IMG/VR virus record: IMGVR_UViG_3300045004_000088 | Span: 192,001-253,983 of that record | Direction: 5' to 3' (one strand) | DNA length: 61,983 bases | Source: a virus | In this document: positions 21,363 to 27,882 of the stretch, piece after piece | Numbering within the stretch: the first letter of the stretch is position 1 | Layout: each line of letters starts with the position of its first letter | Made by a program: the position numbers and the translations under genes | The notes under the pieces: model-generated | The model's database searches: none | Seen by the model: only the letters and a program-made list of their open reading frames with translations | Told to the model about the DNA's origin: nothing

Positions 21363-22202
21363 ATGAAAAGCCTCGCCTTCAGAGAGTGGTTCGCCAAAAA
21401 TCCAGAGGAACTGTTCGGCATCGACCCGGAACACAACCTGTCGCTGGAAGAGAAGCGGCGTCGTCGCGCCGAGAACTACGACACGCCCGGCAACATCCTG
21501 TCTCCGACTCGCCTGATGACCGAACTCATGCGCATGGGTCCGGTCAACAACAAAGAGCCGCAACGAGTCTGGAGCGACGTGGTCGCATACGGTGACGCCG
21601 AGCGTTCCGGCTCGCTGATGGCCGCGTTGACGCCCAACGGCAGTCTGCGGTTTAACATCCGCCGTCTTTGCGTGGACCTTGAAGGAACCCGCGTCTGGAC
21701 GCTGAAGAAGGTGATCTCTCTGGTAGAGAAGATCGAACAGAAGGAACGCGGAGACACAGCCGAACACGGAATGGCGCAGGAATACCACGAGGTGATCGAG
21801 AAGATCGACACGCCACACATTGACGCCGCGAAAAACGACTTCAAGGGTATGGAAGAATTGGCACTGCGGCTGGCCTCTCTGAGTCGTCAGAACCACCCGA
21901 CCGTGATGCACTATTCGGGAATTCGCAAGCACGACGACAACTACTACCAGATCTACTTCCAGTACAGGGGTCATGGCGCAGGCGGCGATACGCCGCGCCA
22001 GAGCCAACTGGAACAGTTCGACATCAACTTGAAGTATTACCGGGAACGCGGTGTGATTCGGTGTTGGGGCGGGGAGATCCAGTCGCCCAAGAAGGGTCAC
22101 CGCTGGAAGCTGATGCCGTCCGAGTGGGACGAGTATTTCGTCCCCACCCAGTCCGCGTCAGAGATTACTGAGGCCGTCATTCAGATTTTCTTGGCTTACT
22201 GA
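21363..22202 (+). CDS. hypothetical protein (279 aa)
   Basis: Protein-like composition, in contrast to the overlapping antisense ORF. Confidence 0.55.
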   Translation: MKSLAFREWFAKNPEELFGIDPEHNLSLEEKRRRRAENYDTPGNILSPTRLMTELMRMGPVNNKEPQRVWSDVVAYGDAERSGSLMAALTPNGSLRFNIRRLCVDLEGTRVWTLKKVISLVEKIEQKERGDTAEHGMAQEYHEVIEKIDTPHIDAAKNDFKGMEELALRLASLSRQNHPTVMHYSGIRKHDDNYYQIYFQYRGHGAGGDTPRQSQLEQFDINLKYYRERGVIRCWGGEIQSPKKGHRWKLMPSEWDEYFVPTQSASEITEAVIQIFLAY

Positions 22203-23042
22203 CGGTCGGGAGCGGAACTTGCCGTCTTGAGACTCGATGAGCTTCTTGTTTCGCAAACCGATCAGTATGTCGTATGTGAAATACCTAAGTCCGCGTTTGA
22301 TCATAAACTCGCGAGAAAACGTCGGCGTTTCGATTGTCGAGCCGCGCTTCTTTTCTTGGTGCTTCCGTACAGCGTCTTCACGCTTGTTGTACGACTTGAT
22401 CAGTTCGTCTTCTGAAACGTGCGGCTGGAAGATCGGCATCATTTCTTTGACCCCGACCCAATCGGCGGGTACGAACCGGAGTAGGTCGTGTTGCACACCG
22501 TAAACGATGACATGCTGTACCTTGATACGCATCGGGGTGGTCAAGGCGTCTTCTATTGACCACCCGTCACTCAGTCGTTTTTGGAGTGTGTTAAGTTTCA
22601 CTCCCAGTTTCTTTGACCACTGAGCAAGTGTCAGCGTTTCGTCCATGACGGTGAATGCCTTGCCCGCCCCGAATTGACGAGGCTTGTTGTCTTTGTGCTT
22701 GATCTTGACTTGTTTCGCCGAGTGTGAAAGCTTCGGCGAAACAAGTCGGATCAAAGTTTTATCTTCGTTATACTCTTTGTTAATGCCGCTTTCAACACGA
22801 CGGCATACCCGTCTTTTGCCCAGAGAAACTTTCATGTGCAGGGGTTCGTCGGGCTTTTTGTCCGAGTATTTCAGGTCGGCTTCTCTGGCGCGGCACGCGA
22901 TGGTCACATCGATGCTCGGCATGAACAGCACGCCGAAGACTTGTCGTGAAACCCATCCCTGATCATTGACCCAGTTCTTCTTGTCGAGCAGGATCAGTTC
23001 AGCCTTCTCGCGGAGAGACTGGATGTGGTCGATTTTTGACAT
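22158..23042 (-). CDS. HTH DNA-binding protein, possible homing-endonuclease-like; lies in a lower-GC island
   Basis: Internal ATG with GAGGAG RBS; HTH TLAQWSKKLGVKLNTLQKRLSDG. Confidence 0.45.
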   Translation of the reverse strand: MSKIDHIQSLREKAELILLDKKNWVNDQGWVSRQVFGVLFMPSIDVTIACRAREADLKYSDKKPDEPLHMKVSLGKRRVCRRVESGINKEYNEDKTLIRLVSPKLSHSAKQVKIKHKDNKPRQFGAGKAFTVMDETLTLAQWSKKLGVKLNTLQKRLSDGWSIEDALTTPMRIKVQHVIVYGVQHDLLRFVPADWVGVKEMMPIFQPHVSEDELIKSYNKREDAVRKHQEKKRGSTIETPTFSREFMIKRGLRYFTYDILIGLRNKKLIESQDGKFRSRPSVSQENLNDGLSNL

Positions 23043-23057
23043 AATGTACTCCTCTGC

Positions 23058-23084
23058 GGACCCGCCGAATAATTCGGCGGGTCC
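23058..23084. other. perfect palindrome GGACCCGCCGAAT-A-ATTCGGCGGGTCC between two minus-strand genes
   Basis: 13-bp arms; intrinsic terminator or operator. Confidence 0.5.
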
Positions 23085-23092
23085 GCAAGTTG

Positions 23093-24157
23093 TTAGGCGA
23101 TGACCAAATCCTTTTTGCTGCACAACTTGATGAAGTCACGCAGAGACGTTTCCAGAGCTTCGAGGCGAACGATCTCGTCCGAAGTGATTGACGTTTGAGT
23201 GCCGTTGGACGGGAGCCGAAGGACGGCGAGGAGCTTGTCGGCCTGCCTCAGCAGGTCGGGTTTGGTCATCACCTTCTTGGCGCGGCCTTGCATGACGCCG
23301 CCGTCCGTTTCTTGTTTCTTCACCTTCTCCATCGTCGCGAAGCGACCGGCGAGATCTTTGGTCATCGCCTTCTGCTCGTCGGTCGTCGCACACTTCCGGT
23401 ACGCTTCACAGAACAGTTTGATCTGATTGGCGTTGATTTTCGGGTTCTTGATCGCCTCGTCCACCAGAAGCTCGGCCACGCTCAGTGTGACTCGCTCGAT
23501 GGCGGTTCCGATTTCCCGTTTGACCGTCTCGTTGAGCGAGTTGGCCTTCGACTTTTTCCCGAAGGCGTTGTTGAACTTCATTATCAGGAGTTGCTCTTTG
23601 AGCCGCTCTTTCTTGACACCAAAGAGCTTGCAGGCGTCTTCGATGGTCGCGTCGTAGTTCTCGATTTCGTTGATCGCGTGTTGCAACTGAGATGCTTCGC
23701 TGTTCGGAAGACCGTTACGGTTGTTTGCGGTCTTGGTGAACCGCCGACGCGCCTTCTCGCTGGCGAAGGCGACGATGTACAGGTTGACGAACTTGTACTT
23801 ATCGCTGAGGCTGATCCGGTGGTTGCCGTCAACCAGAACGATTTTGCCGGTAGCCGGGTCGATGCAGCCCGTTCCGGCGGGGAACTTACAGCCTTTGTCG
23901 AGGTTGATCTGAAGCAGGGCGAGGTGAGACTGAATCAGAGGAGCCTCACAGCGTGCCTGATTTCTGATGCTTTTCTCGATGTCGATCTGATTGTAGTGAA
24001 CTTTTCTGAATGTCCAGAATCCGGGCGCGGGATCGGCATCACCTTCACTTTTGGTGATGCCGATCCGGGTGAACTCATCCTCCAGCGAAGAGTCGCGCTT
24101 CTCGCTGGCGGGGGAGACGCAGTTCGGCACGTCGAGGTCTTCCGATGCGTTCTTCAT
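23093..24157 (-). CDS. ParB-like nuclease-domain protein
   Basis: IVLVDGNHR (ParB/Srx DGxHR); internal ATG with GAGGA RBS. Confidence 0.55.
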   Translation of the reverse strand: MKNASEDLDVPNCVSPASEKRDSSLEDEFTRIGITKSEGDADPAPGFWTFRKVHYNQIDIEKSIRNQARCEAPLIQSHLALLQINLDKGCKFPAGTGCIDPATGKIVLVDGNHRISLSDKYKFVNLYIVAFASEKARRRFTKTANNRNGLPNSEASQLQHAINEIENYDATIEDACKLFGVKKERLKEQLLIMKFNNAFGKKSKANSLNETVKREIGTAIERVTLSVAELLVDEAIKNPKINANQIKLFCEAYRKCATTDEQKAMTKDLAGRFATMEKVKKQETDGGVMQGRAKKVMTKPDLLRQADKLLAVLRLPSNGTQTSITSDEIVRLEALETSLRDFIKLCSKKDLVIA

Positions 24158-24200
24158 ATCGTCCTCTGAAAGAATTAGGGCGACTGGTCGAGTCAATTCA

Positions 24201-24228
24201 ACTATACTAAAACGTCTCGACCAGTCAA
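24201..24228 (-). promoter_or_regulatory. sigma70-like promoter TTGACT-N16-TATAGT (minus strand) embedded in an 11-bp inverted repeat, upstream of the ParB-like gene
   Basis: Near-consensus hexamers with 16-nt spacing. Confidence 0.45.
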
Positions 24229-24248
24229 GCAATCAAAAGGAAAAAATT

Positions 24249-24650
24249 ATGGACGCAGTCAAAAGACGGTGTCTGAAGATGTGGAAAGGCATGAAAAACA
24301 GGACGAAAAGCAGGAAGGAGTACGCACGGGTCGAGTTGAAAATGACCAAAAACGAGTTCATGATCTGGGCAGGGCCGAGGGTTGCCAACTTCATGTTTCT
24401 CTATCCCGAACTCACGCCATCCCCCGACAGGATCGACCCGGAAGGGCATTACGAAATATCAAACCTGCGGATAATCGACGCAGATCACAACAGAAGGATC
24501 TCTGGGTTTACCTGCAAAGCGTTACGGCTCGACAGACTTGACACGGTTTCCGAACGTGTCGAGGTGTTCGCACTGGTGATCGACTCGACGTGCCGACACG
24601 CGAATATCCCCAAAGACAAACTAATCGAATACCTGAAGGATTCGATTTAA
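24249..24650 (+). CDS. HNH-family (HNH_3-like) endonuclease-like protein
   Basis: DRIDPEGHYEISNLRIIDADHNRR; RBS AAGGAAAAA. Confidence 0.35.
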   Translation: MDAVKRRCLKMWKGMKNRTKSRKEYARVELKMTKNEFMIWAGPRVANFMFLYPELTPSPDRIDPEGHYEISNLRIIDADHNRRISGFTCKALRLDRLDTVSERVEVFALVIDSTCRHANIPKDKLIEYLKDSI

Positions 24651-24664
24651 CGTAAGTTGTTTGG

Positions 24665-25342
24665 CTATTTGTCTTTTGGGAAATAAGACTGGAAGGCGGC
24701 GACGACCTTTTCGTTCTTCAGACCGGCGAGAGTGATCACTGGTACTTCGAGCTTGCGCAGGGTCGGCGAAAGGGCGACGAAGTACGGTCGAATGAAGCCG
24801 AATTTGAGCCATTTGAGGATGTCGCCCTTTTCGTGTCGCGATTGCAGGAACGCCGGGGTGACTTCTGGGACGTATTTGGCGAGGAACGTCGCGCTTGTCT
24901 TCAGGTCGAAGTCCACGGTTTCCATCGAGACGTTGGTGTCTTCTTCCGCGTCGGACGTTTTCCGGGCATCCCGCACCTTATTCATCATCTTCTCGTAGAC
25001 TTTCCAGCGTTTCCACGCGGCGGGGCCGGCAGTCATTTGAGGGGAAACATAGGCTTCATTTTCATCGTTGTTGACTTTGCAGATCCACAACTGGGCCATC
25101 ATGTAGTGTTTCAAGTCGGTGGGCGCGACCAGACCCCGCGTGCGTCGGATCATCCTGATCATGTACTTGAACAGGGACGAGTCGCGCGGATCTCCCGTGG
25201 CCCGGAGCTTATTCCCAGGACCGATTCTGGAGTTCGGGAAATACTCCTCGACCTTTTTGGACCAGAGAAGGGCAAGCTGGTAAGCTTGGGTTTCTTCTTC
25301 GGTCATTTGGTACTGCAACGGAATGCTGAACGGGTCTTCCAT
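24665..25342 (-). CDS. hypothetical protein (225 aa)
   Basis: Internal ATG with GAGGTG RBS. Confidence 0.5.
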   Translation of the reverse strand: MEDPFSIPLQYQMTEEETQAYQLALLWSKKVEEYFPNSRIGPGNKLRATGDPRDSSLFKYMIRMIRRTRGLVAPTDLKHYMMAQLWICKVNNDENEAYVSPQMTAGPAAWKRWKVYEKMMNKVRDARKTSDAEEDTNVSMETVDFDLKTSATFLAKYVPEVTPAFLQSRHEKGDILKWLKFGFIRPYFVALSPTLRKLEVPVITLAGLKNEKVVAAFQSYFPKDK

Positions 25343-25369
25343 CCCACACCTCGAAATGTGCCTCGCCAC

Positions 25370-26278
25370 GGACTCTCAGAGTATATACCCTGGACCCGTG
25401 AAGCAGTGCGAGACGGAGTTCTTCGTCCGTCATGCTTTCGAGTGAGTCAAGATAATCCGCCATCCGGCGGTCGTCAAGGTCGGTTCTCATCGCCGCTCCA
25501 TTTCTTTAATTTGCAGTTGCACCCCCCGCCCCCGAACGCTAGTATAACCTGAAACCGCATTCCGCCCCAAGCAGAATACGGCCAAAAGGTGTTCGAGATC
25601 GTAAGTTCCTTGTAACTTTGTACATCAGTGTACAGTTTCACGGAAAGTGTGATCTAAAACATCACGCGCAACTACCGACTACTACCGTTTCAACTACCGA
25701 CTACTGGAGTGCATCCGCCTAAAGATGCCGAGACTTGCCGTGTGGCCAGTACCCGCTGTACGGACAAGTTCGTAGAGTCGCCATGAGAGCGGCTCAAACC
25801 TGTGGGGGCTTCGCTTAACTTAGCCAAAGAAAAGGTAGCAGAGCTTATTGCAAGCGCTGTTATGGATCGGACCACCGGGGCCAATCCTATCCCACATGTG
25901 TCGTGAGGTCAGCGGTCAACTACCCTCTTCAAAAGCTGTCAGGGGGCTTGTACTGTCGTCCTGCCACCTACTCGAAAGTCTTCGGATTGTTTGAGTAGGT
26001 CTAACAGGCGGGTAACGCGATCAGCGTAAGCGACGGTTTGGTTGAACACGTTCGAGCGCACAAAGAACGTCCCTTCGATGGAAGGGCAACTGGTACACTC
26101 ATTCAGATTTACCCACATCCGGGTAATCTTTAAGCCGTAGGCTTGCACACCTACCTCAGTGGTAGGTGAAAGAACAACGAGACTAGATCTTGTTATTCTT
26201 GATGCAACTCCTACTCCCTTAAAGACAGCGACCCGGTATTGAATAGAAGTAAAACAAAGAGTATATGGGCGATTTTGC
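25370..26278. other. 0.9-kb gene-free structured region: iterons, TGTACA palindromes, multiple GNRA/UUCG hairpins and group-I-like GACTAGA...TAGTC motifs
   Basis: Listed ORFs are short and junk-like; lower GC; many perfect hairpins. Confidence 0.4.
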
Positions 26279-26515
26279 CTAGCCCTGAACTTGCCAGTGT
26301 GTACGCCACTTGTAGTCTTTCGGACTGCGCGCTTTTGTCAGGTTGTCTTGGAGCCTGATGTCCGGGTTGTCGAAAGTCCAGCACTCTCCTGTTGCGTCGA
26401 TGAAGACCACCCACTGCAAGTGGTGTTCGATCCCCACGTCGATGACGAGATGCGCCATTCCTTCGCCTTTGGGCGTAACTACCGGAATGAGCGGATTGAG
26501 TTGAAGCATTCCCAT
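26279..26515 (-). CDS. hypothetical protein (78 aa)
   Basis: Minus ORF; could instead be part of the structured RNA region. Confidence 0.3.
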   Translation of the reverse strand: MGMLQLNPLIPVVTPKGEGMAHLVIDVGIEHHLQWVVFIDATGECWTFDNPDIRLQDNLTKARSPKDYKWRTHWQVQG

Positions 26516-26583
26516 GCCCTATTTACGCTTCCTATGGCGATCACGTCTCGGATTGTCTATCATGTGAAGACTCGGAGGGAGAC

Positions 26584-27882
26584 GTGGACAGCACCTACAC
26601 CGAACTGAGTTTTTTGCTCGACGCCGCAGCCAAGAGCGGCACGTCGGTGTACCTCCATTTGGAACCACTCGTTTGGGACGTGACCGACCCCAAGTCCGAG
26701 AAGAACCTCGCGATCTGCACGCCCGACTCACGGTTCACCATCCCGATGTCGGCCGAGAACGTCCCGTTCATCTTTTCGGTCCTCAAGCGTTCCATCCTCG
26801 CGGAAAACAGAACCGTGATCGGGTGGGATCTCAAGCCGCTGTTTTCTTGGTTGAAGAGGTGTTTGAAGAAGTTCGACTTGCCGAAGATTCGGTACTTCGA
26901 CCTTCGGTATTTGGAGAAGTACGCCGGCATCCAACTGGAAAAGCCGACCGGCTTCGAGGAAGCTCAGGTTCGCGCCGGGGCCGTCACGAAACAAGACAAC
27001 TGGAAAGAAGCCACATCGATGTGGCAGAAAGTCATCAAGCCGCTGGCGACGAACGTGGTTCCCGCGTTGGAGAACAACGGGTTCCTGAACGTTGACCGCG
27101 TGGCCCGCGTGTTCCCGTGCTACCAGATCGAAGCACAGTACAACGGCCGCATGTCGTGTTCCGAGGACTTCGTCCACGGCGTCAACGTTCAAACGATGGG
27201 CGACGACTTGCGTGGAAAACTGCGGCCGTTGGGCCTGGACGAAGTGTTCATGTATTTCGACTACTCGAACATGGAAGTGGCCGTCCTTCAATGGCTGTCA
27301 CAGGACGAAGATCTCGCGGAGTTCATGGCCGAGGGCCGGTTCTACGAGAACCTGTGTCAGTTCCTGTTCGGCCGCGAGAGCAACGAAAACTCACGAAAGA
27401 TGGTGAAAAAAATCTTCCTGCCGACTATCTACGGGTCATCGGCCATCGGTCTGGCAAACAAGCTGCCATGCCGAGAACAGATTGCGGAGACGATCATCAA
27501 TCGTTTGAAGCAGCAGTTCGCGAAGTCTTTTCGCTACGTCGAACAATTCCAAGATGAAGCCGCGAAGAACGGTTTCGTCCGTGACCGATTCGGGCGTCGG
27601 CGGTACATCACTGAACCGTACCTCGCTCGTTCTTTCTCCATCGCTTCCCCGGCCACGGCCATTTGCCTTGAGCGACTCGTCGCTCTACACAATCTAAACG
27701 TCTCGCCGCTCCTGATGTCGATTCACGACGGTTTCGTCGTCTCGGCTTCACAAAAGAACGCCAGCAGCGTTTGCGCCGCCGTGAAGGACTGCCTTGAGGC
27801 CGAACCCTCTTTGGCACCGGGTCTTAAACTCAACGTTCACTGCACAATCGGGAGGAGTCTTGCCGGCATGACGGGCCTATAA
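26584..27882 (+). CDS. family A DNA polymerase (polymerase domain; no 5'-3' exonuclease)
   Basis: Motif A DYSNMEVAVLQW, motif B RKMVKKIFLPTIYG, motif C SIHDGFV; GTG start after GGAGGGAG. Confidence 0.85.
   Translation: MDSTYTELSFLLDAAAKSGTSVYLHLEPLVWDVTDPKSEKNLAICTPDSRFTIPMSAENVPFIFSVLKRSILAENRTVIGWDLKPLFSWLKRCLKKFDLPKIRYFDLRYLEKYAGIQLEKPTGFEEAQVRAGAVTKQDNWKEATSMWQKVIKPLATNVVPALENNGFLNVDRVARVFPCYQIEAQYNGRMSCSEDFVHGVNVQTMGDDLRGKLRPLGLDEVFMYFDYSNMEVAVLQWLSQDEDLAEFMAEGRFYENLCQFLFGRESNENSRKMVKKIFLPTIYGSSAIGLANKLPCREQIAETIINRLKQQFAKSFRYVEQFQDEAAKNGFVRDRFGRRRYITEPYLARSFSIASPATAICLERLVALHNLNVSPLLMSIHDGFVVSASQKNASSVCAAVKDCLEAEPSLAPGLKLNVHCTIGRSLAGMTGL

Follow-up and report, generated by a model that had tools for sequence, protein, structure and literature searches.

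Bacterial and phage RNAs that are both large and intricately folded are rare, and the large RNAs of known function—rRNA, RNase P RNA, group I and group II introns, and tmRNA—are mostly catalytic or information-processing. The OLE, ROOL and GOLLD RNAs have recently been found to form unprecedented RNA-only assemblies. The DNA polymerase gene is a common intron host, and the plasmid transcript ColE1 RNA II depends on a family A polymerase. ROOL and GOLLD are phage-encoded, are usually found beside tRNA islands in phages and prophages, and have no known protein partner or function (PMC12286853).

The locus described here lies in a 61,983-nt stretch of viral DNA (positions 192,001 to 253,983 of the IMG/VR record IMGVR_UViG_3300045004_000088), referred to as the window, which very probably contains at positions 25665–26240 (core 25706–26239, plus strand) a gene encoding a large non-coding RNA with extensive structure, from an undescribed family. 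The element resembles ROOL, GOLLD and OLE in its length range (approximately 500–800 nt), its many helices, its invariant loops and junctions, and its probable pseudoknots. Unlike these RNAs, however, it is located about 19 kb away from the tRNA island and adjoins the DNA polymerase gene (polA) in all relatives, carries a 5′ tail of heptamer repeats, and belongs to one narrow clade of huge phages. With group I introns it shares the features of a phage-borne structured RNA of the 0.3–0.6 kb class near a DNA polymerase gene, and with ColE1 RNA II and the T4 oriF/oriG transcripts those of a structured, ~0.5 kb transcript adjoining replication functions. Overall, a structured RNA of a new family that acts as a stand-alone molecule is the best explanation, to which we assign a probability of roughly 0.6.

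The non-coding stretch comprises 788 nt (25491–26278) and is bounded by two conserved small genes on the minus strand. The preliminary description had portrayed a gene-free interval holding junk frames only, a view that these open reading frames (25209–25490 and 26279–26515) do not bear out. The left one (25209..25490, minus strand), recognized by protein alignment and ORF survey, encodes a protein of 93 aa in the window and of 63–129 aa among relatives, overlaps the start of a 225/234-aa gene, and is kept at 10/10 related loci, where it co-occurs with the structured RNA. A protein database search with this small protein returned no homologues, and its single-sequence AlphaFold model (pLDDT 60) is uninformative. 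On the right, a 78-aa gene (26279..26515, minus strand) is placed between the RNA and the polymerase gene; its product is 70% identical over 77 aa, ungapped, to that of the closest relative, L004 (tblastn), and the gene is confined to these two loci, the others being without it. The family A DNA polymerase gene itself (polA, 432 aa; 26584..27882, plus strand; Pfam PF00476, with Taq and Bst Pol I as matches in the PDB) is encoded on the same strand as the RNA, which heads a replication module of PolA, a 186-aa gene, NUDIX and DnaB. The 225-aa protein was considered as the missing exonuclease of PolA and discarded, its Pfam match being sub-threshold (E 6e-4) and not repeated with the L003 homologue; a comparison with the PDB gave no match. 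The neighbouring small proteins matched no family, and no initiator gene was identified.

Conservation of the core was established by blastn and nhmmer, and its fold by RNAalifold, pair counts, a strand test and a coding control. The element was found as ten full-length copies and one contig-truncated copy, all within one narrow clade of huge phages, and these constitute the family sample. Each copy is flanked by the small protein gene on the minus strand and by polA, and the core measures approximately 490–550 nt. While the polymerases of the element-bearing relatives are 56–86% identical, the non-coding DNA is 71–77% identical over 290–416 nt to every close relative (blastn, E down to 5e-58), a conservation equal to or above that of the flanking coding DNA. 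In distant polymerase relatives (32–37% identity; L014, L025–L029), neither nhmmer nor the covariance model R1 detected the RNA, and the equivalent site is occupied by protein genes or a short gap; in L027–L029, a Prim-Pol primase gene is found at this position upstream of polA. Model R1 scores 106–126 bits in the ten copies and has no further matches. A blastn comparison of the region with 50,697 phage records was likewise negative, as was a scan of 185,579 species genomes with a two-block DNA pattern. In the viral scan with the same pattern, L018 and L022 proved to be genuine copies, and L019–L021 were dismissed as chance coding matches. Three further viral contigs that match the 18-mer TCGGACCACCGGGGCCAA are coding sequence without other similarity, and matches of a hub pattern in one Gemmatimonadetes MAG and one viral contig are attributed to chance. 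Literature searches, including those with literal sequences, revealed no matching RNA family; so far, the element is known only from one small group of related huge phages.

The comparative alignment of these copies yields both conservation and compensatory changes, and the large structured ncRNA that had been listed among the candidate functions finds strong support in the conservation and covariation seen among ten relatives. On the plus strand, the consensus fold contains at least 17 helices with 101 pairs over ten sequences, in which 96.6% of the cells are paired, versus 37–43% when the partners are slid against each other. Compensatory changes occur in 33 pairs, versus 6–14 in the slid controls, and 0/500 shuffles reached the observed pairing values. 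The RNAalifold energy is −114.9 kcal/mol (covariation term −13.1) for the plus strand and −88.95 kcal/mol (term −5.4) for the minus strand, on which the G-U pairs of the plus strand are read as C-A mismatches. The opening 540 nt of polA, taken as a control from the same eight genomes, give −25.8 kcal/mol and a term of +0.82, i.e., no signal. In the window copy, the fold constrained to the consensus (−157 kcal/mol) is less stable than the unconstrained minimum (−200.6 kcal/mol). Owing to the small sample from a single narrow clade, the predicted helices H1, H6, H8 and H10 are invariant across the ten sequences and show no covariation.

From sequence comparison, the core is predicted to be organized into three domains, namely a 5′ hairpin trio, a central domain of three hairpins, and a long rod. 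The 5′ domain (25711..25794, plus strand) is defined by consensus fold and pair counts and comprises hairpin H2 (25711–15/25724–28), H3 (25736–46/25755–64), with four pairs showing compensatory changes, and H4 (25776–81/25789–94), with five such pairs; H3 is further distinguished by three tandem G-U wobble pairs, all conserved, and by an invariant loop, CAGUACCC. In the central domain (25801..25896, plus strand), which consensus fold, pair counts and covariance model R1 support, H5 encloses the hairpins H6, with an invariant loop of 11 nt, H7, with seven covarying pairs, and H8, which carries the invariant stretch GGAUCGGACCACCGGGGCCAAUCC. The rod (25898..26061, plus strand), likewise delineated by consensus fold and pair counts, consists of H9–H15, among which H11 has four, H14 five, and H9 and H13 two compensatory pairs each; the loop of H12 (25923–27/25942–46, plus strand) contains the motif AAAAGCUGUC. 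H14 includes a variable inner hairpin, CCTACTC...GAGTAGG, one of the perfect hairpins already noted in the preliminary description, which we locate at 25967/25993. The others are equally present—TTACCC/GGGTAA at 26109/26121, CACCTAC/GTAGGTG at 26148/26162, and CCCTTC-GATG-GAAGGG (CCCTTCGATGGAAGGG) at 26071. The TTACCC/GGGTAA pair corresponds to H16 (UUACCC...GGGUAA; 26106..26129, plus strand), the 3′ strand of which, GGGUAAUCU, is invariant, and the CCCTTC-GATG-GAAGGG hairpin is an insertion into an RNA junction (26068..26092, plus strand) that is found in the window only and in none of the other nine sequences.

Towards its 3′ end, the element contains an invariant segment of 26 nt, CUCCCUUAAAGACAGCGACCCGGUAU (26214..26239, plus strand), termed the hub, which occurs once in the window and is predicted to close the fold, at least via helix H17. 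In H17 (26127..26225, plus strand), the strand UCUUUAAG (26127–34) is paired with CUUAAAGA (26218–25); 88.9% of its cells are paired, versus 34–61% in slid controls, and one of its pairs is U-A in five sequences, C-G in four and G-C in one. H17 encloses a variable sub-domain (26136–26213) that contains, besides the CACCTAC/GTAGGTG hairpin, a long hairpin rich in A/U; the sub-domain adopts a nested fold in 10/10 sequences. Besides the 5′ strand of H17, the hub is complementary to a 5′ GGAG (H1), to the loop of H12 (GCUGUC/GACAGC), and to the loop of H8 (ACCGGG/CCCGGU). The GACAGC/GCUGUC complement is common to 10/10 sequences, compared to 2.5% of 2000 hub permutations (P ~0.03), and ACCGGG (25874–79) is complementary to CCCGGU (26232–37) in 9/10 sequences, both strands being invariant. 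The H1 and hub/H8-loop pairings never vary among the ten sequences and are candidate pairings by complementarity. In the L013 lineage, the hub has the sequence GACUGC. A role of the hub as a repeated phage promoter was rejected on the grounds that it is unique in the window.

The region upstream of the core contains DNA signals for divergent transcription. A leftward −10 hexamer, TATACT (25541..25546, minus strand), recognized by alignment and by promoter scans of L018, L003 and L005, belongs to the promoter of the small protein gene and the 225-aa gene; at this position, the relatives have TTGAAG-18-TATAAT. The −35 region of this promoter is overlapped by a conserved hairpin, CCGCATTC...GAATACGG (25555..25581), which was read from the sequences and has the form GTCTTC...GAAGAC in relatives, its stem letters varying by lineage with pairing maintained. 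The TGTACA palindromes pointed out earlier are indeed present (25619 and 25629) and form a dyad, TGTACA-N4-TGTACA (25619..25634), a putative operator that occurs once in the window, is kept in 8/10 relatives, and lies immediately upstream of the rightward promoter. That promoter is of the sigma-70 type (TTGAC(G/T)-16/18-TA.AAT) and located directly upstream of the repeats in 6/10 relatives; the window's own rightward −35 and −10 hexamers are degenerate, and a TAAAACAT box (25655..25662, plus strand) corresponds to the promoter spacer of the relatives.

Downstream of this promoter follows the ACTACCG repeat array (25669..25705, plus strand), which has three exact copies and partial ACTAC units in the window. 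The repeats were correctly read in the preliminary description, with the heptamer at 25671, 25681 and 25693 and the 15-mer CAACTACCGACTACT at 25669 and 25691. Close-spaced ACTACC..ACTAC pairs number two in the window, both at this locus, versus 0.03 expected by chance, and in the relatives the arrays comprise 2–7 copies with a period of 10–12 nt and, thus, a variable copy number. Such arrays are confined to this site. In the RNA, they probably constitute a C-rich, unpaired 5′ tail. A search for complements of the ACUACC repeats in phage tRNA D-loops or other genomic sites brought no convincing match.

Membership of the element in a known large RNA class, i.e., as a very divergent RNase P RNA, a group I or II intron remnant, a tmRNA, or an RNA of the ROOL/GOLLD/OLE type, is very improbable. 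It would fit a tRNA-rich phage with a tRNA island in the window (1–6480), and an internal hairpin of L001 has a local 17-nt match to a T-arm, but this T-arm-like loop is limited to L001 and L022. The parts ...ACAGC.ACCCGGUAU of the hub and GGACCACCGGGGCC of the H8 loop bear what we take to be a loose resemblance to the two P4 strands of RNase P RNA, and the candidate ACCGGG/CCCGGU pairing near ACAGC recalls the P4 pseudoknot of this likewise large RNA; nevertheless, helix order and domain layout differ, with the ACCGGG strand enclosed by H5, and none of the RNase P models of Rfam (bacterial A or B, archaeal, nuclear, type T) matched. Searches of Rfam 15 at the gathering score and at E ≤ 10, conducted with the window, its core alone, L001, L018 and L022, returned no RNase P, intron, tmRNA, ROOL, GOLLD, OLE or HEARO match even with lax filters, and none to the raiA covariance model; only chance matches were obtained (Lacto-phage-1 with 17.7 bits, mir-277, THF-II, and the 17-nt T-arm), and ARAGORN found no tmRNA. 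The lack of a significant match means only that the family is absent from Rfam and does not refute a structured RNA. The degenerate or ORF-less group I intron proposed earlier finds no support in the Intron_gpI model (RF00028; no match at E ≤ 10 in the window and three relatives). The P7-like strands exist, yet GACTAGA is located at 26181 instead of 26179 in a loop lacking conservation among relatives, TAGTC is located at 26313 instead of 26321 and inside the 78-aa ORF, and the Tetrahymena P6-like motif falls into a non-conserved segment. Furthermore, the element is inserted in no gene, and its flanks—promoter and variable repeats on the 5′ side, variable spacer or an opposite-strand ORF on the 3′ side—are without conserved exons. 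It is just as hard to maintain that there is no functional RNA and that conservation reflects either DNA regulatory sites in a promoter/operator array or an overlooked protein-coding gene. At the 5′ edge, DNA signals are certainly present in the form of the operator-like dyad, the promoters and the repeats, but conservation extends over ~500 nt downstream of the promoter, where G-U pairs specific to one strand occur together with compensatory changes, and the hub and the other blocks are unique in the window rather than repeated motifs. A coding gene is at odds with single-base indels inside the conserved blocks, which break the frame and thus rule out a shared ORF, and with the polA control, in which coding sequence gives no covariation signal.

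Alternatively, the same structured RNA might work in cis, as a 5′ leader of exceptional size for the replication operon (polA, the 186-aa gene, NUDIX, DnaB and further genes) that controls mRNA read-through, stability or processing, e.g., by binding a replication protein or a metabolite; this is rather unlikely. Co-transcription with polA as a leader is quite possible, since a sigma-70-like promoter between hub and polA is missing in 9/10 relatives, as is a plus-strand terminator past the hub in the three relatives scanned (L018, L003, L005); in most relatives, the RNA lies on the polA strand 110–160 nt upstream of this gene. In the window and L004, however, a conserved opposite-strand gene and a terminator-like site on the plus strand part the RNA from polA. 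A GC-rich hairpin with a U-run inside the 3′ domain, called terminator-like by the scan in L005 and L018, would suit an attenuating leader, but its U-run is engaged by an A-run upstream, and H17 together with a further helix encloses the hairpin, so that the latter looks structural and not switch-like; no alternative antiterminator pairing was found. In addition, the riboswitches and leaders known so far are all much smaller than ~550 nt, and none of the cis-regulatory families in Rfam, riboswitches and T-boxes included, was matched. A replication origin, or an origin-associated control site, in which ACTACCG would be the initiator iterons, the TGTACA dyad would offer another binding site, and initiation would be activated or primed by the transcript, as with ColE1 RNA II or a T4 oriF/oriG R-loop, appears improbable. 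The direct repeats have many traits of iteron-type origins and operators—heptamers conserved at a spacing of 10–12 bp or about one helical turn, variable in number, restricted to one site, and adjacent to a palindromic dyad—and the site, flanked by divergent transcription units, is at the front of the replication genes; at the equivalent position upstream of polA, the distant relatives L027–L029 have their primase gene. The iteron part of the earlier proposal stands in so far as the repeats are real and conserved, while a GC-skew turning point is missing: the cumulative skew has no extremum at 25–26 kb in the window, which represents 62 kb of a genome of possibly ~476 kb. Neither an initiator gene nor a conserved AT-rich unwinding element beside the repeats was identified, and all repeats are downstream of the inferred promoter and, therefore, probably transcribed as the RNA 5′ end. 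In contrast to the ColE1 and T4 primer transcripts, this 5′ end is C-rich instead of G-rich and poor in G, disfavouring a stable R-loop, the GC skew is flat, and the invariant loops together with the hub suggest that the RNA is globular rather than R-loop-forming. Iterons also leave the 33 compensatory pairs spread over 500 nt without explanation. Nonetheless, the origin and structured-RNA roles are not mutually exclusive.

For the stand-alone RNA, a mechanism may be outlined that, taken as a whole, is tentative. Judged from the relatives, transcription would start at the sigma-70-type promoter, presumably read by the host polymerase, just past the putative TGTACA-N4-TGTACA operator; from the promoter position, the RNA would begin with the unpaired C-rich tail of 2–7 ACUACCG repeats. 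We infer both transcript ends from the sequence, and in the window a terminator-like hairpin with a T-run that matches the consensus (26311..26339, plus strand), ~70 nt past the hub, is a possible 3′ end. The molecule would not be a mere mRNA leader, and the fact that the window and L004 tolerate a minus-strand gene between RNA and polA counts towards this stand-alone reading. Its compact, hub-locked core could serve as a scaffold or an active centre and its repeat tail as a single-stranded, multivalent docking site; from co-occurrence alone, the leading candidate for the partner bound there would be the small basic protein of the divergent adjacent gene. The action of the RNA may be tied to the replication gene module (PolA, NUDIX, DnaB). 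Rather doubtfully, the RNA might even represent a new functional class, i.e., a catalytic or a cage- or scaffold-forming RNA that is made early in infection and acts directly in replication. It could then, for example, recruit or prime the exonuclease-less PolA or replace the protein gene that distant relatives have at this site, with the ACUACCG tail as a substrate- or partner-binding arm. Trans-splicing of a split polymerase was also considered and dismissed; the N-terminus of polA is conserved and has its own start, the RNA and polA are not contiguous, and there is no space for a 5′ intron half past the 225-aa gene.

An RNA without detectable relation to known large RNAs, heading the replication genes of huge phages, suggests that such genomes hold RNA machinery which protein-centred annotation has missed. 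The unusual architecture of repeat tail, three domains and 3′ hub provides a defined object for structural and functional study, and the family model (alignments A6 and A7, model R1) allows testing in metatranscriptomes and in vitro. As regards base composition, the lower GC content ascribed to the region is real but modest, amounting to 0.50 for 25491–26278 versus 0.556 for the window, which is below that of 96% of equal-size windows.

The locus singled out in the preliminary description, upstream of the family A DNA polymerase gene (polA; 26584-27882, + strand), is real and interesting, and the structured non-coding RNA encoded there (core 25706-26239, + strand) appears to constitute a new family, with a probability of about 0.9 for its identity as a new structured RNA. 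For comparison, ten relatives were taken with a polymerase identity of 56% or more and with contigs that extend upstream of polA; in these, gene callers leave approximately 1.0–1.2 kb upstream of polA empty (0.9 kb in relative L012). Positions 25671-26068 and 26203-26239 are matched in each relative at 71–77% identity (blastn, E-values down to 5e-58), and the DNA identity of the element is equal to or higher than that of the neighbouring coding DNA. The alignments contain invariant blocks of up to 31 bases and intervening stems that vary in sequence with their complementarity kept, while single-base indels within these blocks rule out a common reading frame. Two further copies (L018 and L022) were obtained from a metagenome pattern scan, and L013 has the 3′ half of the RNA at a contig end.

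The comparative data show a conserved, strand-specific, multi-domain RNA fold, whose 3′ segment pairs back into the body. RNAalifold on eight sequences gave −114.9 kcal/mol with a covariation term of −13.1 and 120 pairs for the + strand, compared with −88.95 and −5.4 for the minus strand; many G-U pairs of the + strand turn into C-A mismatches on the opposite one, so that the reading direction of the RNA is that of the polymerase. To control for relatedness, these eight genomes were also folded over the first 540 nt of polA, which yielded −25.8 kcal/mol and a covariation term of +0.82. The consensus from a ten-sequence alignment comprises 101 pairs in 16 helices, with 96.6% of the cells paired versus 37–43% upon sliding the 3′ partners by 1–3 columns, and with 33 pairs changed on both sides versus 6–14 upon sliding; none of 500 shuffles equalled the observed values. 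Single-sequence folding (z scores of −3.85 and −2.47 for the + and minus strand, respectively) is weak evidence on its own, and for the window copy the consensus-constrained fold (−157 kcal/mol) is less stable than the unconstrained minimum (−200.6 kcal/mol); thus, the case for the RNA stands on the comparative data.

The ACUACCG repeats (25669-25705, +) form a tail that is probably the 5′ end of the RNA, followed by GGAG (25706-09), which could pair with CUCC (26214-17) to form helix H1, an invariant and, hence, only candidate helix. The 5′ domain carries hairpins H2, H3 and H4; in H3, three tandem G-U pairs are kept as wobbles and the loop is invariant. The central domain (25801-25896) consists of three hairpins closed by H5, namely H6 with an invariant loop of 11 nt, H7 with seven covarying pairs, and H8, a 24-nt invariant stretch. 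In the rod domain (25898-26061), H9, H10 and H11 are stacked, branch to H12 (loop AAAAGCUGUC) and continue via H13 to H14 and H15. H17, which was found by hand, pairs UCUUUAAG (26127-34) with CUUAAAGA (26218-25); one of its pairs is U-A in five, C-G in four and G-C in one of the ten sequences, so that the invariant 26-nt 3′ block (26214-26239; the “hub”) belongs to the RNA. H17 encloses a variable sub-domain with nested hairpins and a lineage-specific closing helix in all ten sequences. Further complements link the hub to the H12 loop (GACAGC/GCUGUC, common to 10/10 sequences versus 2.5% of hub permutations) and to the H8 loop (CCCGGU/ACCGGG, in nine of ten); as neither varies, both pairings are leads rather than results. 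In L013 (251-290), a hub variant, AGACTGCC in place of AGACAGCC, reads GACUGC, and the corresponding H12 loop falls off the contig end.

The repeats, palindromes and hairpins of the preliminary description lie where it had placed them or within a few bases; close ACTACC..ACTAC pairs occur at this site only in 62 kb (chance expectation 0.03), and the lower GC content is a modest one (0.50 versus 0.556; below 96% of equal-size windows). H14 has the CCTACTC/GAGTAGG hairpin as its variable tip, TTACCC/GGGTAA is H16, CCCTTC-GATG-GAAGGG is an insertion unique to the window copy, and CACCTAC/GTAGGTG together with an A/U-rich hairpin holding GACTAGA makes up the variable sub-domain. The boundaries of the described interval need correction: it is not gene-free but contains two conserved minus-strand ORFs, leaving 25491-26278 as the truly non-coding stretch. 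The first ORF (25209-25490) is kept in 10/10 related loci, extends, in a different frame, into the start of the neighbouring gene and was overlooked by gene callers in nearly all of these loci; its product retains the core ..EY..SLE.MS.EEL..L..GAR..KL.V.G.. at about 35–40% identity and has no entry in a database of 5.8 billion proteins. The second ORF (26279-26515), a 78-aa gene inserted between the RNA and polA, aligns gap-free at 70% identity with its counterpart in the closest relative, L004 (3443-3673); it is missing from the other loci and has no family match.

Concerning known RNA families, the searches with four independent copies against Rfam 15 (E ≤ 10), with ARAGORN for tmRNA, and of the literature, including the literal sequence, gave no credible match. 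A group I intron, as had been proposed, is not supported: no model matches, the element is not inserted in a gene, and the suggested P7 and P6 strands fall in non-conserved or coding sequence. The covariance model built for the central domain gives 106–126 bits in the ten copies, detects no further copy within the window and has no match at the loci of relatives with a more distant polymerase, where the site upstream of polA is occupied by a 372-aa protein, by a Prim-Pol plus a 90-aa protein, or by a 141-aa minus-strand gene and a short gap. Searching IMG/VR and 185,579 species genomes by pattern yielded just the already known contig and chance matches; the family is thus rare and, on present data, limited to one clade. 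The hub and the H8 loop loosely resemble the P4 strands of RNase P, with no support from model matches or helix order. The alternative of a large structured non-coding RNA, also raised initially, is well supported. Nearest in kind are ROOL and GOLLD, phage-borne “ornate” large RNAs of unknown function (PMC12286853); the present RNA is of that kind, but it is not a member of either and its genomic setting differs.

A sigma-70-type promoter, TTGAC(G/T)-16/18-TA.AAT, stops a few bases short of the first repeat in six of the ten relatives, so that the repeats probably form the 5′ end of the RNA; the window's own hexamers are degenerate. Directly upstream of the −35 hexamer lies a TGTACA-N4-TGTACA dyad, unique in the window, and several relatives have an extra TGTACA half-site ahead of polA. 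A divergent promoter (TTGAAG-18-TATAAT; −10 of the window, TATACT) serves the small protein and a 225-aa gene. Upstream of this leftward promoter, a hairpin (25555-25581 and equivalents) keeps its pairing with a stem differing by lineage (CCGCATTC/GAATACGG versus GTCTTC/GAAGAC), and its loop in the relatives holds the −35 hexamer TTGAAG.

A stand-alone, trans-acting role is our tentative proposal. The host polymerase would use the sigma-70-type promoter to transcribe the RNA, controlled by a protein bound to the dyad, the unpaired C-rich repeat tail could serve as a multivalent binding platform, and the RNA might act free or as an RNP, linked to replication. A possible partner, or else the operator-binding regulator, is the small basic protein of the divergent gene, found along with the RNA in 10/10 loci. 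Less likely in our estimate, though quite possible, is a giant leader that acts in cis on the replication operon. Downstream of polA, the same strand carries genes for a 186-aa protein, a NUDIX protein, a DnaB-type helicase, a 224-aa protein and methionyl-tRNA synthetase. Between hub and polA, nine of ten relatives have no sigma-70-like promoter, and the three relatives scanned (L018, L003, L005) have no + strand terminator after the hub; this interval holds an opposite-strand gene in the window and L004, and a + strand terminator-like site in the window. The origin function suggested initially is improbable, with no support from GC skew, albeit from a window spanning only part of the genome.

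The window appears to come from a huge phage: an identical polymerase is recorded on contigs as long as 476 kb, relatives of it reside on 262-, 586- and 587-kb contigs, and among GenBank phages the best match is to an uncultured one of 595 kb (31% identity). A tRNA island (1-6480; two Ser, one Phe and four Leu genes) is consistent with such a genome. Within it, a 124-nt tRNA-like gene (2598-2721, +; Rfam tRNA 39.2 bits, CCA at the end), not called by ARAGORN, has about 50 nt inserted downstream of the anticodon-stem region; this may be a phage tRNA with an intron or some other interruption. The polymerase (Pfam PF00476; PDB matches to Taq and Bst Pol I) comprises just 432 aa, with database matches spanning residues 172–425, approximately, and no recognisable 3′–5′ exonuclease domain was found in it. 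The divergent 225/234-aa protein (24665-25369) gave only a sub-threshold match to DNA_polI_exo1 (E = 6e-4), not reproduced with the L003 homologue; polymerase and exonuclease could conceivably be split between these two genes. Two HNH-endonuclease-like ORFs (PHROG 3377; 22161-23123, − and 24051-24647, +) lie inside a stretch of about 2.5 kb that is missing from L003, L005 and L008, and, thus, probably represents a homing-endonuclease insertion adjoining the replication module. In L025, a distant huge-phage relative (587-kb contig), an IS605-type TnpB/Cas12f-like gene (1-365) is located about 4.6 kb upstream of polA.
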